From NCBI RefSeq assembly GCF_024502345.1, contig NZ_JALDNN010000001.1: 64,000 bases of DNA; one strand, written 5' to 3'. The stretch comes from Escherichia coli (GTDB taxonomy: Bacteria; Pseudomonadota; Gammaproteobacteria; Enterobacterales; Enterobacteriaceae). The notes beneath the pieces were generated by a model. It was not told where the DNA came from and made no database searches. It worked only from the letters and a program-made list of their open reading frames with translations. Position numbers and translations under genes: made by a program. Shown in pieces: positions 1 to 53,721 of this stretch (position 1 is its first letter; each line of letters begins with the position of its first letter).

Positions 1-377
1 TAGCGACCGCGATGCGGGAGTATTTTCCAGAACATTGGTGCGATTGACACAAGGCCAATCAGTAATGCCAGGTTAATTCGCCAGCGTTGGTCGTGTGGGT
101 AAAGTCCATACATAAACTGACCAAATCGTTCGTGGATGAAGACCCAACAGGCACCGGCTTTTGTGCAGTCGGCACGCGTTGAGCCAACCCAGTTAGCCTG
201 CAAAAATGCCCAGTTCAGCAACGGTGGGATCAGTTCACACATCAACCATATACAGCCAATAGTCAGTAGGCTATTGCTCCAGCTGGAGAACAGATTTTTT
301 CGCACCCACACCATAGCGCGGCTTGAGTTATGGCTCGCCGGGCGCGGGGGATGAGACAGCAATACTTTTGTCATCAT
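1..377 (-). CDS. yhdY: Amino-acid ABC transporter permease, 5' part only (runs off window start)
   Basis: Reverse-strand reading from ATG at 375-377 gives MMTKVLLSHPRAR...; sits immediately downstream of yhdX as in the yhdWXYZ operon. Confidence 0.6.
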   Translation of the reverse strand, partial: MMTKVLLSHPPRPASHNSSRAMVWVRKNLFSSWSNSLLTIGCIWLMCELIPPLLNWAFLQANWVGSTRADCTKAGACWVFIHERFGQFMYGLYPHDQRWRINLALLIGLVSIAPMFWKILPHRGR

Positions 378-383
378 GACTCC

Positions 384-1565
384 TTAGCGTTCCACGATCG
401 CGATGCGGCGGTTATAGATATTCATCAGCAGCGAGATAGTCAGGCTGATAATCAGATAGACCGACATGGTCATGGCTATCGTCTCGATGGCTTGCCCCGT
501 CTGGTTCAGCACGGTGCCAGCAAACAGCGAAACCATATCGGGATAGCCAATAGCGGCGGCAAGAGAGGAGTTTTTGACGATGTTGAGATACTGGCTGGTT
601 AACGGTGGAATAATCACCCGCAGTGCCTGGGGAATAATGACCTGGCGTAGCGTAACCGGGTTGGGTAATCCCAGTGACCGAGCAGCTTCATGTTGACCAT
701 AAGGCACTGCCTGGATCCCAGCGCGGATAATCTCGGCGATAAATGCAGAGGTATAAACCGAAAGTGCCAGCGTTAAGGCTGCCAGTTCAGGAATTAAAAC
801 CATCCCGCCGCGGAAGTTAAAGCCTTGTAGGGCTGGGACATCCCAGTGTAGTGCTGCGCCAAAAAGCCATTGCGCCAGTAAAGGCAAACCAATGATCAAC
901 ACTGCGGCGATGGGCCAGGTGCGGCGCAGTTGTCCGGTCTTTATCTGGTATGTTTTATTAAAGCGGAATAGCCCAACAGAAAGGACTATAGCCATAACAA
1001 CAGCCAGGATAAACGCAATAAATCCGTCTCCCAGCTGCGGTGACGGAATATAAAGCCCACGATTGCTCAAAAAGGCGAGAGCAAACGCGCTCACAGCCTG
1101 GCGTGGTCCGGGCAAATTGCGCAACACGGCAAAGTACCAGAAGAAGATTTGCAGCAGCGGGGGAATATTACGGAAGATCTCAATATAAATTGTGGAAAGC
1201 TTTCGTAGCAGCCAGTTATCCGAAAGTCTCGCCAGACCGATAAAGAAGCCCAAAACAGAAGCGAACACAATACACAATGCAGAAACCAGTAGCGTATTGA
1301 GTAAGCCGACAATAAAAACGCGTCCGTAGGTGTCGCCCTGCTGGTAATCGATCAAATGCTGGACAATACCGAAACCAGCGCCGCGATCCAGAAAGGCAAA
1401 ACCTGAAGTAATGCCACGATTGCTCAGATTCGTTACAGTGTTGTGAAATAACCAACCAACAATGCCGACAACAGCAACAACGGCAAGGATCTGGAATAAC
1501 CAGGCGCGAACCGTAGGGTTGGCAAAAGAGAGTGAGCCTTTAACGGTTGAGCGGCGATGAGACAT
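384..1565 (-). CDS. yhdX: Amino-acid ABC transporter permease
   Basis: 399-aa ORF in track; multi-pass membrane protein; likely true start at internal MSHRRSTVKG; conserved position after yhdW. Confidence 0.85.
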   Translation of the reverse strand: MSHRRSTVKGSLSFANPTVRAWLFQILAVVAVVGIVGWLFHNTVTNLSNRGITSGFAFLDRGAGFGIVQHLIDYQQGDTYGRVFIVGLLNTLLVSALCIVFASVLGFFIGLARLSDNWLLRKLSTIYIEIFRNIPPLLQIFFWYFAVLRNLPGPRQAVSAFALAFLSNRGLYIPSPQLGDGFIAFILAVVMAIVLSVGLFRFNKTYQIKTGQLRRTWPIAAVLIIGLPLLAQWLFGAALHWDVPALQGFNFRGGMVLIPELAALTLALSVYTSAFIAEIIRAGIQAVPYGQHEAARSLGLPNPVTLRQVIIPQALRVIIPPLTSQYLNIVKNSSLAAAIGYPDMVSLFAGTVLNQTGQAIETIAMTMSVYLIISLTISLLMNIYNRRIAIVER

Positions 1566-1632
1566 AGAAACCTCGGAAAGCATAACGCTGAAGAGAGCGC
1601 CGCCGTAGCGACGCCCGTTACCTCACACCGAC

Positions 1633-2658
1633 TTAACGCACGGGCGGCGCGTACTGAATACCGCCGTTATTCCAGAGATTATTTTGCCCACGTTTAATTT
1701 TCAGCGGGCTTTCTGAACCTACGTTACGCTCGAAAATTTCCGAGTAGTTACCCACCTGTTTGATGATGTTATAGGCCCATTTATTATCCAGCTTCAGATC
1801 CTTGCCGTAATCGCCTTCTTTACCCAGCAGATGTGCCATATCAGGCGTTGCTGGATTAGCCGCTTTTTCATCGACGTTCTGAGAATTGATGCCCATCTCT
1901 TCAGCATTCAGCATGGCGAAAAGCGTCCAGCGTACAATCGAGAACCATTCATCATCGCCACGACGAACTACCGGCCCAAGCGGTTCTTTAGAGATAACCT
2001 CCGGTAAGACAATCCATTCAGCTGGGTTGCTTAATTTGATGCGCAGGGCATACAGTTGCGACTGATCCGAGGCCAGCGTATCGCAGCGACCAGATTCCAG
2101 TGCCTTCGCTGATTCGTCAGAGCGATCGAAAGTCACCGGTGTGTACTTCATATTGTTTGCCTTGAAATAGTCGGCAACGTTGAGTTCGGTATCAGTACCC
2201 GCCTGAATACAGACGGTAGCGCCATCCAGTTCTTTCGCGCTTTTTAGCCCCGCTTTATCGTGCGTCAGGAAGCCAATGCCGTCGTAATAAGTGACGCCAG
2301 TAAATGCCATTCCCATCCCGGCGTCGCGAGATGAAGTCCAGGTCGTATTACGGGAGAGCAAATCCACTTCCCCTGACTGTAAAGCCGTGAAGCGTTCTTT
2401 TGCTGTGAGTGGGGTATATTTCACTTTCGTGTCGTCACCAAATACAGCAGCGGCAACACCACGACAAACATCAACATCAATACCTGAAAACTTACCGTCT
2501 GCATCGGCATAAGAGAACCCAGGTAATCCATCACTGATCCCGCATTGCACAAAACCTTTTTTCTGAACGGCATCAAGCGTCGCGCCAGCATGCGCCTGAT
2601 TTGCAACGGCAAGCAGCACGCTGGCGGCAGCCAGTGTGGCTATCATCATCTTTTTCAT
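1633..2658 (-). CDS. yhdW: Periplasmic amino-acid binding protein of ABC transporter
   Basis: 341-aa ORF with signal peptide MKKMMIATLAAASVLLAVANQAHA; conserved position. Confidence 0.9.
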   Translation of the reverse strand: MKKMMIATLAAASVLLAVANQAHAGATLDAVQKKGFVQCGISDGLPGFSYADADGKFSGIDVDVCRGVAAAVFGDDTKVKYTPLTAKERFTALQSGEVDLLSRNTTWTSSRDAGMGMAFTGVTYYDGIGFLTHDKAGLKSAKELDGATVCIQAGTDTELNVADYFKANNMKYTPVTFDRSDESAKALESGRCDTLASDQSQLYALRIKLSNPAEWIVLPEVISKEPLGPVVRRGDDEWFSIVRWTLFAMLNAEEMGINSQNVDEKAANPATPDMAHLLGKEGDYGKDLKLDNKWAYNIIKQVGNYSEIFERNVGSESPLKIKRGQNNLWNNGGIQYAPPVR

Positions 2659-3088
2659 AATGCTTCCTGTGAGGCGAAAATTATCGTTATAGGACGTTTG
2701 GGAAACGTCTTTTACCTGTCTGTGGCCATCCTCTTATAAGCAAAAGTAGTGCCAGCTTTTGCGCCCGATTTCGCGTCGCAATAAGCTGAGTGTAGACAGG
2801 AAATAATAAAAACAGCGCCCCGCAATGGTGCGAAAATGAAACATGCGCCACATTTTGGCGCAAAATATTTACGCGTGTTTTACTAAGCAGAATAATGATT
2901 GTTAGCGTGAGTATATTTCTGGTGGGAAGTATGAAAGTTAAATTGATGCGTTATTTCGAAAGCAGCGAAATAACGCGATATAACATGCTAAATCAGCAGA
3001 GAATTAGCCAGCAGAATATAGCAATATTTTATCTTATGTAAAGATACTGTATCGTTAAACAGAGCGCGAAACTCCGCGCCCTGTTCAG

Positions 3089-3310
3089 TTATTTCGACAG
3101 AGCGATGATCCCCATCGTCAGGCCAGCAACAGCTGCTGCCCCGCCAGCAATAGCCCCAGCCGTTTCCCAGTTATCCTGAGTTGTGCCTTTCATACAGGTA
3201 TTGGTGTGAACCAGACGACCCTGATCGTCATAAACCGGAACGCAGGGCGAATCATGAGCACAGCCCGCCAGCAATGCGGTGAGCAATGCCACAGGAATTA
3301 ATCTTTTCAT
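3089..3310 (-). CDS. yhdV: Small lipoprotein
   Basis: 73-aa ORF with lipoprotein signal MKRLIPVALLTALLAGC; conserved position downstream of acrF. Confidence 0.8.
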   Translation of the reverse strand: MKRLIPVALLTALLAGCAHDSPCVPVYDDQGRLVHTNTCMKGTTQDNWETAGAIAGGAAAVAGLTMGIIALSK

Positions 3311-32178: not shown

Positions 32179-32253
32179 TTTGACGAGGGCGCGTAATTGC
32201 CCCAATCTCATAGGATAATCGTTGCCAAAGGCCAACGAGCCAGAACATAACCG

Positions 32254-32290
32254 TAGGCCGGATAGGGCGTTCACGCCGCATCCGGCAGCC
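32254..32290. repeat. REP (repetitive extragenic palindromic) element
   Basis: gtaggccggatagggcgttcacgccgcatccggcagcc matches the classic GCCGGATG...GCATCCGGC REP family; intergenic between yhdP and tldD. Confidence 0.75.
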
Positions 32291-32318
32291 GTAAAAAATC
32301 CTCTACTGCAGTAACTAA

Positions 32319-33779
<1,461 letters not shown>

Positions 33780-33906
33780 TAATTTCAGTATTTTCAGAAG
33801 GATAATTAATCTTTCTACGTGCACGAACGGTCCCCTCGCTCCTCTGGGGTTAGGGTGAGGGGAACCCGTTGGCACAGGTTTGTACAACGTAACAGTACAA
33901 TATGAA

Positions 33907-34836
33907 TTACTTCTCTTTCCCGCGCCCGTGCATCTCCTGAAACAATTTACCGACCTCAACAAAATAATCCGTCAGCGAGTTGATCACGACCTGTACCTTC
34001 AGCGGCAGCTTATCTTTTTCGGTATATAACGCATAAACCGGGCGTGGATCTGACTGATAACGCGGCAGCAGGATCTCCAGCTCCCCACGATTGATCTCGT
34101 TGATCACCCACATCAGCGGCACGTAGGCGATCCCGGCACCCGCCGTTAGCCAGCGCACCAGCGTCATCGGATCATTAGTCACAAATCTCCCTTGCGGGAT
34201 CAGGCGAGTCGAGATCCCTTCCGGTGCGATCAGTTCAAATTCATTGTCGGGCCGCACGCTGTATTCAAGCCATGAATGGCTACTTAAATCGGCGGGTTTT
34301 TCCGGTATGCCGTATTGTGTGAGATAGCTTTTCGCGGCGCACACCACCATTGGCATCGCGCCAAGACGGCGGGAAAACAGGCTGGAATCCTGCAACGCGC
34401 CGACGCGGATCACCACATCCAGACCGTCGGCAATCAGGTCGGGGGCTGGAATTCCGGTAACCAGATTGACGCTCAAACCTGGGTATTCTTTCAGCATTTT
34501 TGCTGTCAGCCCGGCGAGAACATTTTGTGCCATAGTTGAAGAACAGCCAATGCGTAGCGTCCCGATGGGGGTGTTATTGAAGGCATACAGTTGCTCATGA
34601 ACATCCTGCACTTCATGAAGCATCCGACGGCAGCCCTGGTAGTAAATTCTGCCGGCTTCGGTCAGGCCAATGCTGCGTGTGCTACGGTTTAACAGCTTTA
34701 CCTGCAACTCATCTTCCAGTTTTGACACCGTCTGACTGATGGACGAAACGCTCATCTGTAGCTGTCTGGCGGCGGCGGTAAAAGAGCCAAATTCAACTAC
34801 TTTGGCAAACACCGACATGCGTTTTAGTCGTTCCAT
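33907..34836 (-). CDS. aaeR: LysR-family transcriptional regulator AaeR
   Basis: 309-aa ORF with N-terminal HTH; divergent from aaeXAB. Confidence 0.92.
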   Translation of the reverse strand: MERLKRMSVFAKVVEFGSFTAAARQLQMSVSSISQTVSKLEDELQVKLLNRSTRSIGLTEAGRIYYQGCRRMLHEVQDVHEQLYAFNNTPIGTLRIGCSSTMAQNVLAGLTAKMLKEYPGLSVNLVTGIPAPDLIADGLDVVIRVGALQDSSLFSRRLGAMPMVVCAAKSYLTQYGIPEKPADLSSHSWLEYSVRPDNEFELIAPEGISTRLIPQGRFVTNDPMTLVRWLTAGAGIAYVPLMWVINEINRGELEILLPRYQSDPRPVYALYTEKDKLPLKVQVVINSLTDYFVEVGKLFQEMHGRGKEK

Positions 34837-51228: not shown

Positions 51229-52122
51229 ATGGCAACGAATTTACGTGGCGTAATGGCTGCACTCCTGACTCCTTTTGATCAACAACAAGCACTGGATAAA
51301 GCGAGTCTGCGCCGCCTGGTTCAGTTCAATATTCAGCAGGGCATTGACGGTTTATACGTGGGTGGTTCGACCGGCGAAGCCTTTGTACAAAGCCTTTCCG
51401 AGCGTGAACAGGTACTGGAAATCGTCGCCGAAGAGGCGAAAGGTAAGATTAAACTCATCGCCCACGTCGGTTGCGTCAGCACCGCCGAAAGCCAACAACT
51501 TGCGGCATCGGCTAAACGTTATGGCTTCGATGCCGTCTCCGCCGTCACACCGTTCTACTATCCTTTCAGCTTTGAAGAACACTGCGATCACTATCGGGCA
51601 ATTATTGATTCGGCGGATGGTTTGCCGATGGTGGTGTACAACATTCCAGCCCTGAGCGGGGTAAAACTGACCCTGGATCAGATCAACACCTTGGTTACGC
51701 TGCCTGGTGTCGGCGCGCTGAAACAGACCTCTGGCGATCTCTATCAGATGGAACAGATCCGTCGTGAACATCCTGATCTGGTGCTCTATAACGGTTACGA
51801 CGAAATCTTCGCTTCCGGCTTGCTGGCGGGCGCAGACGGCGGTATCGGCAGTACTTACAATATCATGGGCTGGCGCTATCAGGGGATCGTGAAGGCGCTG
51901 AAAGAAGGCGATATCCAGACCGCGCAGAAACTGCAAACTGAGTGCAATAAAGTCATTGATTTACTGATCAAAACGGGCGTATTCCGCGGCCTGAAAACTG
52001 TTCTGCATTATATGGATGTTGTTTCTGTGCCGCTGTGCCGCAAACCGTTTGGTCCGGTAGATGAAAAATATCTGCCAGAACTGAAGGCGCTGGCCCAGCA
52101 GTTGATGCAAGAGCGCGGGTGA
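51229..52122 (+). CDS. nanA: N-acetylneuraminate lyase
   Basis: 297-aa [55 protein letters not shown]. Confidence 0.97.
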
Positions 52123-52230
52123 GTTGTTTCCCCTCGCTCGCCCCTACCGGGTGAGGGGAAATAAACGCATCTGTACCCTACAATTTTCATACCAAAGCGT
52201 GTGGGCATCGCCCACCGCGGGAGACTCACA

Positions 52231-53721
52231 ATGAGTACTACAACCCAGAATATCCCGTGGTATCGCCATCTCAATCGTGCACAATGGCGGGCATTTTCCG
52301 TTGCCTGGTTGGGATATCTGCTTGACGGTTTTGATTTCGTTTTAATCGCCCTGGTACTCACCGAAGTACAAGGTGAATTCGGGCTGACGACGGTGCAGGC
52401 GGCAAGTCTGATCTCCGCAGCCTTTATCTCTCGCTGGTTCGGCGGCCTGATGCTCGGCGCTATGGGTGACCGCTACGGGCGTCGTCTGGCAATGGTCACC
52501 AGCATCGTTCTCTTCTCGGCCGGGACGCTGGCCTGCGGCTTTGCGCCAGGCTACATCACCATGTTTATCGCTCGTCTGGTCATCGGCATGGGGATGGCGG
52601 GTGAATACGGTTCCAGCGCCACCTATGTCATTGAAAGCTGGCCAAAACATCTGCGTAACAAAGCCAGTGGCTTTCTGATTTCAGGCTTCTCTGTGGGGGC
52701 CGTCGTTGCCGCTCAGGTCTACAGCTTGGTGGTTCCGGTCTGGGGCTGGCGTGCGCTGTTCTTTATCGGCATTTTGCCAATCATCTTTGCTCTCTGGCTG
52801 CGTAAAAACATCCCGGAAGCGGAAGACTGGAAAGAGAAACACGCAGGTAAAGCACCAGTACGCACAATGGTGGATATTCTCTACCGTGGTGAACATCGCG
52901 TTGCCAATATCGTAATGACACTGGCGGCGGCTACTGCGCTGTGGTTCTGCTTCGCCGGTAACCTGCAAAATGCCGCGATCGTCGCTGTTCTTGGGCTGTT
53001 ATGCGCCGCAATCTTTATCAGCTTTATGGTGCAGAGTACGGGCAAACGCTGGCCAACTGGCGTAATGCTGATGGTGGTCGTGTTGTTTGCTTTCCTCTAC
53101 TCATGGCCGATTCAGGCGCTGCTGCCAACGTATCTGAAAACCGATCTGGCTTATAACCCGCATACTGTCGCCAATGTGCTGTTCTTTAGTGGCTTTGGCG
53201 CGGCGGTGGGGTGCTGCGTCGGTGGCTTCCTCGGTGACTGGCTGGGAACCCGCAAAGCGTACGTTTGTAGTCTGTTGGCCTCGCAGCTGCTGATTATTCC
53301 GGTATTTGCGATTGGCGGTGCAAACGTCTGGGTGCTCGGTCTGTTACTGTTCTTCCAGCAAATGCTTGGACAAGGGATCGCCGGGATCTTACCAAAACTG
53401 ATTGGCGGTTATTTCGATACCGACCAGCGTGCAGCGGGCCTGGGCTTTACCTACAACGTTGGCGCATTGGGCGGTGCACTGGCCCCAATCATCGGCGCGT
53501 TGATCGCTCAACGTCTGGATCTGGGTACTGCGCTGGCATCGCTCTCGTTCAGTCTGACATTTGTGGTGATCCTGCTGATTGGTCTGGATATGCCTTCCCG
53601 CGTTCAGCGTTGGCTGCGCCTGGAAGCATTGCGTACTCATGACGCTATCGACGGCAAACCATTTAGCGGTGCCGTGCCATTTGGCAGCGCCAAAAACGAT
53701 TTAGTCAAAACCAAAAGTTAA
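52231..53721 (+). CDS. nanT: Sialic acid MFS transporter NanT
   Basis: [46 protein letters not shown]...; track ORF extended upstream. Confidence 0.96.

Follow-up and report, generated by a model that had tools for sequence, protein, structure and literature searches.

Two hairpin units downstream of tldD and nanA

The 64-kb window, that is, the whole stretch of E. coli DNA that was analysed, is oriented in reverse to the 3.36-3.40 Mb region of the MG1655 genome. It contains two GC-rich hairpin units, one between the convergently transcribed tldD and aaeR (site 1) and one between nanA and nanT in the nan operon (site 2). Gene names were taken from the RefSeq annotation of identical or orthologous DNA. 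The features considered here are the following:

32334-33779, plus strand: tldD (open reading frame, annotation of orthologous DNA)
33819-33875, plus strand: site 1, BoxC element of type A in a decayed allele, with the flanks GTGCACGAACGGTC ... GAACCCGTTGGCAC (nhmmer profile, orthology)
33826-33870, plus strand: hairpin of site 1 (RNA fold of -26.3 kcal/mol, allele alignment)
33907-34836, minus strand: aaeR, convergent with tldD (open reading frame, annotation)
51229-52122, plus strand: nanA (open reading frame, annotation)
52124-52164, plus strand: site 2, two-block BoxC-like hairpin between nanA and nanT in the nan operon (fold, BoxC profile, positional homology)
52231-53721, plus strand: nanT (sequence; its 1491 nt equal the annotated length of nanT in MG1655)

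The initial annotation had described a hairpin unit present once after tldD and once after nanA, and both quoted strings were indeed found, at 33830-33866 and 52128-52162, within one base of where it had placed them. The pattern TCCCCTC-N10-30-GAGGGGA gave exactly two matches in the 64 kb (33831-33863 and 52129-52159), and none of 100 dinucleotide shuffles of the window contained any match. The two units have the arms TCCCCTCGCTC…GGGTGAGGGGAA in common. Their likeness is limited to these arms (11 nt and 12 nt) and the loops differ, so that the description as near-identical holds for the arms but not for the loops. Likewise, a position a few bases past a stop codon applies to site 2, which starts at 52124, 2 nt after the nanA stop (52122), but not to site 1, the motif of which starts 51 nt past the tldD stop (33779). 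The latter motif ends 43 nt short of the aaeR stop (33907, minus strand) within a stop-to-stop gap of 127 nt, and the 3' untranslated region of tldD passes through it. The hairpin of site 2 consists of a 5' arm (52124-52140), a loop (52141-52147) and a 3' arm (52148-52164), and the ATG of nanT (52231) follows 67 nt downstream of its end.

Both units fold stably as RNA. For site 1, the folding energies were similar on both strands, with -26.3 kcal/mol (z=-3.0) on the plus strand and -22.7 kcal/mol (z=-3.1) on the minus strand. For site 2, we found -26.8 kcal/mol (z=-5.3) on the plus strand and just -17.6 kcal/mol (z=-1.9) on the minus strand.

Separating the units from a classic REP at 32254-32290 was justified: the sequence at this position reads as a true REP (GCCGGATAAGGCG...CGCATCCGGC), and MG1655 carries a BIME array at the same locus. 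On reading, neither unit contained the REP consensus palindrome (GCCGGATG/AAGGCG ... CGCATCCGGC). REP/BIME elements (PU) resemble the window units in being short, dispersed, extragenic imperfect palindromes located after genes, which give U-less stem-loops when transcribed, and a REP occupies the post-nanA position of site 2 in many species; they are, however, a separate sequence family without similarity to the units.

A catalogued MG1655 copy as the orthologue of site 1

BoxC is a dispersed repeat known from E. coli and from enterobacteria related to it, listed for E. coli as a family of 56 bp with 32 copies (PMC2267715), and is identical to the PIT (potential intrastrand triplex) element and to the triplex motif TMECO, for which a consensus, CCCTCNCCC-N3-6-GGGNGAGGG-N3-GGGNGAGGG, and a list of 23 MG1655 copies have been published (Holder et al. 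2015, PMC4666352). A full BoxC comprises one C block and two G blocks within conserved flanks; type A copies of MG1655 have gcac..gaacGGTC upstream of the core and GAAcaggcc..gcac downstream. Applied to the 18 MG1655 loci, the published three-block pattern re-found all 23 copies.

The MG1655 orthologue of site 1 is located between aaeR and tldD (NC_000913.3, 3,390,494-3,390,529), reads GGTC-CCCTCGCCCCTTTGGGGTGAGGGTTAGGGTGAGGGG-AACCC and corresponds exactly to entry 14 in Table 1 of Holder et al. 2015 (3,390,529-3,390,494). The window allele aligns to this copy with one 6-nt gap. Using a profile of the 22 remaining MG1655 copies, from which the orthologue was excluded, nhmmer detected site 1 with E=8e-10 at 33821-33866 (envelope 33819-33875), again with a single 6-nt gap, which lies within the middle G block. 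Site 1 has retained the conserved flanks of the catalogued copies as well as the C block CCCTCGCTC (33832-33840) and the last G block GGGTGAGGG (33853-33861), which together form its stem, and its middle G block has been cut to GGGG (33846-33849) by the 6-nt deletion.

Alignment of the window with six further E. coli alleles revealed a series of three forms between tldD and aaeR. The full three-block allele is present in MG1655 and in strain 94-3024, the allele lacking 6 nt in the window and three other strains, and an allele lacking 12 nt in strain 81009. Among 5,443 records matching the full K-12 allele (81 nt), 2,034 were at least 95% identical and 3,405 were 80-95% identical, and every allele read from the latter band was a deletion form. 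The exact 54-nt version of the window occurs in at least 1,426 records; the 6-nt-deleted allele is common in E. coli. The intergenic region as a whole is unusually polymorphic, with only 365 of 5421 E. coli records at least 99% identical and several length alleles. An insertion of the 6 nt in K-12, instead of a deletion here, was considered and rejected, as the three-block form is found in 22 independent copies. Since the deletion falls between GGG runs, replication slippage is the likely cause. The full, -6 and -12 alleles together document the erosion of a repeat in which short stretches between G runs were deleted.

Less than 2 kb from site 1, repeats have given rise to another length polymorphism. 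The spacer between yhdP and tldD (32179-32333) contains one REP and measures 155 nt here, and the same spacer in MG1655 has 429 nt, with about seven REP units arranged in a BIME-like array.

Both units as BoxC derivatives

The three-block pattern gave no match in the window, since the middle G block is missing from both copies. The window units are BoxC derivatives and not strict members of the family, because neither copy contains all three blocks of the definition. They agree with BoxC in homology, in orthology or positional homology, in intergenic location and in belonging to a multi-copy family. In the 128 kb searched with the 22-copy profile, sites 1 and 2 were the two best matches, and with the flanks included the homology of site 1 to BoxC was clear, that of site 2 marginal. 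In 5,425 E. coli genomes, BLAST searches with either site 1 allele located related places, the median per genome being 12-14. The search pattern TCCCCTC...GAGGGGA, which had been taken to define a family of two copies, also matches 11 of the 23 catalogued MG1655 BoxC copies.

Like all catalogued copies, both window copies are intergenic. The genes flanking the 18 MG1655 loci are convergent in seven cases, co-directional in nine and divergent in two, and 16 of these loci lie downstream of at least one gene 3' end. A copy located between pstA and pstB resembles site 2 in lying within an operon just past a stop codon.

The proposal that the units belong to a palindromic repeat scattered through intergenic DNA, other than REP and located in the 3' regions of genes, has been borne out by these data. 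The implied novelty of the family has not: for its own reading, the initial annotation had named membership of a catalogued E. coli repeat family as the decisive counter-evidence, and the units proved to match BoxC, with site 1 orthologous to copy no. 14. In our view it is highly probable that both units are decayed BoxC copies, making this a real observation on a family that was already known. The consensus sequences of the ERIC (IRU) and RSA families measure about 127 bp and about 150 bp. The window units, with 35-57 nt, are fully explained by BoxC. Catalogues have included BoxC since the 1990s, with renewed studies in 2000-2002 and 2015, and the units carry little weight as a discovery. On the other hand, searches with the strict three-block definition miss two-block relics like the copy between nanA and nanT, and BoxC copy numbers are consequently underestimated.

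A BoxC-like match was also seen on a plasmid. In the 155-kb E. coli plasmid p94_0962-1 (NZ_CP074792.1), a segment located between flgF and flgG (1501-1538 of the locus read) is 97% identical over 38 nt. The published TMECO survey found the motif not to be associated with plasmids (PMC4666352).

Origin of the hairpin between nanA and nanT

Site 2 has the identical sequence in MG1655, where it is missing from the published list of 23 copies because it contains no middle block. The 22-copy profile matched it as the second-best hit of the window, with E=0.0078 and over the 3' block and flank only (52149-52169); on the minus strand the value was E=2.8. Both strands resemble BoxC, and the orientation of site 2 is ambiguous from its sequence, because the two-block hairpin is nearly self-complementary. 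The plus orientation appears favoured, solely by the alignment to other genera described below. The arms of site 2 have 11 nt and 12 nt in common with the BoxC arms, and the adjoining family-specific bases have been kept, namely TTTC preceding the C block and GAA following the G block.

To follow the position through other genera, species-representative genomes were searched with NanA as the anchor, and the nanA-nanT spacer was read in each of the 80 loci obtained. Each of the seven Escherichia sequences that were read, those of E. albertii and E. whittamii among them, has the two-block hairpin after nanA. At this place, Pseudocitrobacter faecalis and Enterobacter sp. kpr-6 contain a full three-block BoxC pair composed of a minus-strand type A copy and a plus-strand type B copy, and full copies are also present in the spacer of P. 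vendiensis, as a tandem array of at least five units. Degenerate BoxC forms occupy the position in Kluyvera. The elements of Pseudocitrobacter, Enterobacter sp. kpr-6 and Kluyvera are followed by the same downstream leader as in E. coli. In a MAFFT alignment, site 2 was matched to the plus-oriented type B copy, the middle block of which fell opposite a gap. The array in P. vendiensis (2895-3300 of the locus read) is built from near-identical type A units with a period of about 70 nt and reflects local amplification.

Taken together, these comparisons make an old BoxC relic the most likely identity of site 2. There are two routes by which it could have arisen. A single type B unit might have lost its middle block, or an inverted BoxC pair might have collapsed, leaving the two outer, mutually complementary blocks; an outcome of the collapse type has been described at palindromic sites (Holder et al. 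2015, PMC4666352). That site 2 derives from BoxC by one route or the other is, in our judgement, quite probable.

It might also be possible that site 2 arose in place as a hairpin of the nan operon, for instance as a processing or stabilising signal, and that its arms resemble BoxC through convergence of GC-rich palindromes. Several observations would fit such an origin: in addition to failing the three-block pattern, being absent from the published list and matching the profile only in part, site 2 is near-invariant in E. coli (5393 of 5408 genomes are at least 99% identical over 136 nt), as opposed to the highly polymorphic site 1, and in many species unrelated hairpins are located at the same place. 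Against it stand the stretches shared with the BoxC arms including the family-specific flank bases, the full BoxC copies that occupy the exact position between homologous flanks in three other species, and the intermediate degenerate forms of Kluyvera. We regard an independent origin as improbable.

Whatever its source, a hairpin after nanA is a widespread feature. In 68 of the 80 species the 70 nt following nanA fold with -20 kcal/mol or less, compared with 14 of 80 coding controls. According to their origin, 47 of the elements at this place are REP-like, 11 are BoxC-like and 22 are of other kinds. The prevalence of the fold is consistent with a benefit of having some hairpin at this place. 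Within Escherichia, covariation lent no significant support to selection for the structure of site 2: pairing was kept in 95.8% of cells, a value equalled by 354 of 500 shuffles, and the four one-sided changes in the hairpin, all of which retain pairing via G-U, do not differ significantly from chance. No relevant description of a nanA-nanT stem-loop came up in a literature search. A strong post-nanA hairpin was missing only in Trabulsiella and a few others.

Two further elements were observed in the same spacer. A second, small hairpin (52197-52224, GCG-T-GTGGGC-ATC-GCCCAC-CGC) abuts the Shine-Dalgarno sequence of nanT, GGGAGA. It is conserved in Escherichia, Pseudocitrobacter, Kluyvera, Raoultella, Leclercia, Silvania, Siccibacter and Phytobacter, with compensatory changes in two of its six pairs (GC/AU/GU and CG/UA/GC), is not part of the leader type found in Citrobacter and Salmonella, and is replaced by a different hairpin in Buttiauxella; it had no match in Rfam. 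Between the post-nanA hairpin and the nanT leader lies the motif CCCTACAAT (52175-52183), which recurs as CCCTACAA/CCTACAA in Atlantibacter, Leclercia, Silvania and Siccibacter. Two possibilities for this motif are a -10-like element belonging to an internal promoter and a binding site.

Triplex formation, intrinsic termination and a new family

For full TMECO elements it has been proposed that an intrastrand triplex stalls polymerases and causes local genome instability, and the units of the window might likewise act at the DNA level. The polymorphism of the tldD-aaeR region with its several length alleles would fit the instability reported around TMECO sites (PMC4666352). Yet each window copy lacks one of the two G blocks required, site 2 is very stable across E. 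coli, and in vivo footprinting, as summarised by Holder et al. 2015 (PMC4666352), gave no support for a stable triplex even in full elements. Because one G block is missing, the ability to form an intrastrand triplex is predicted to be lost in both copies, and an action of this kind is very unlikely here.

A strong GC-rich stem soon after a coding region is also what would be expected of an intrinsic (Rho-independent) terminator, in this case of tldD and/or aaeR and of nanA, and it is in this feature that the units resemble such terminators. A U-tract after the stem was found on neither strand of either site. The stems are followed by AACCCGTTGG and AAATAAACGC instead of a U-rich tract, scans with promoter and terminator consensus sequences detected nothing at the two units, and Rfam covariance models gave no match at E<=1 in the 401-nt stretches around both sites. 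In addition, site 2 is located within an operon, upstream of nanT, and transcription on the tldD strand passes the orthologue of site 1 in MG1655, with bicyclomycin-sensitive (Rho-dependent) termination about 350 nt further on. For BoxC/PIT, Holder et al. 2015 (PMC4666352) summarise published tests without terminator activity, and published studies of BoxC/PIT/TMECO, again according to their summary, revealed no promoter or gene-regulatory role. Intrinsic termination by the two hairpins is very unlikely, and the label terminator-associated, which had been attached to the units, is true in a loose sense only.

The least credible reading, a new and uncatalogued two-copy family of REP-like or terminator-associated elements, could draw on the mere two exact matches in the 64-kb window, on the lack of an Rfam family, and on the RefSeq genomes, which have no annotation under the matches of the units, but it is refuted by catalogue entry 14, by the BoxC profile matches, by the same terminal motif in 11 catalogued copies and by the 12-14 related places per genome. 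The RefSeq annotation of MG1655 contains no repeat feature in this region.

A possible role of the decayed BoxC copies in RNA

We return to the interpretation of both units as decayed BoxC copies, each of which deviates from the family in the loss of the middle G block. With two blocks left, the C block would pair with the last G block to give a stable, GC-rich stem-loop without a U-tract, and the window units would have no dedicated function at the DNA level. Site 2 would be part of the nanA-nanT mRNA, and site 1 part of the 3' UTRs of both tldD and aaeR.

Public data on RNA 3' ends and Rho termination are available for MG1655, which carries the full site 1 allele and not that of the strain studied here (Adams et al. 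2021, PMC7815308, supplementary files). In these data a Rho termination region was mapped to 3,390,148 on the minus strand, which is the tldD strand in MG1655 (Rho score 6.0, p=5.5e-18). Since this region lies 346 nt beyond BoxC, transcription of the tldD strand continues past the element until Rho stops it within aaeR, in antisense orientation to this gene. Rho regions are also located beyond the BoxC copies after hemB, ppiC, ilvC, frlR, adk and tusA in MG1655. Two Term-seq 3' ends fall at or near BoxC copies. One of them (3,959,467, minus strand) is nucleotide 25 of BoxC no. 20, just past the stem formed by blocks 1 and 2, and the other (164,636, plus strand) lies 5 nt after BoxC no. 2. At two of the BoxC loci that were checked, adk and gcvP, the 3' end is provided by ordinary intrinsic terminators. 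The tables of Adams et al. 2021 list for MG1655 no 3' end after tldD and neither a 3' end nor a Rho region after nanA; the nan operon was probably uninduced in the cultures behind these data.

For transcripts that Rho terminates, stem-loops without U-tracts have been shown to determine where the 3' end lies and to protect it (Dar and Sorek 2018, PMC6061677). The tldD-strand copy of MG1655 resembles this class in having a U-less stem-loop in the 3' UTR and a Rho region downstream. It should be noted that the class is a functional one and not a sequence family, and that neither window hairpin coincides with a mapped 3' end. When transcribed, the units would let transcription pass, with Rho terminating further downstream, and the stem-loops could then act like those of REP, blocking 3'-5' exonucleases and defining or stabilising the 3' end of the upstream message. 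The inferred and most likely effect of a transcribed unit is that of a U-less stem-loop able to protect an RNA 3' end. A further step would be that decayed BoxC hairpins have been retained for this protection and that the one at site 2 has been exapted in the nan operon; we offer this only as a tentative suggestion, which is rather less probable than its alternatives.

If it were true, site 2 would stabilise the nanA segment of the nan transcript and uncouple the expression of nanA from that of nanT. At site 1, the -6 and -12 alleles would tune the 3' end of tldD and the antisense read-through into aaeR. For BoxC in general, the function of which is still listed as unknown, a simple role is suggested by the published maps of RNA 3' ends and Rho termination.

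A different, putative contribution of BoxC to a 3' end concerns the ilvC-ppiC spacer of MG1655 (3,959,445-3,959,532). Here, the conserved 5' flank of type B BoxC copies, TTTTCT, directly follows the terminator hairpin of ppiC, AAGGCCTTCTCCAGGAGAAGGCCTT, and the mapped ppiC 3' end (3,959,499) falls at this flank. The BoxC flank may supply the U-tract of the neighbouring ppiC terminator.
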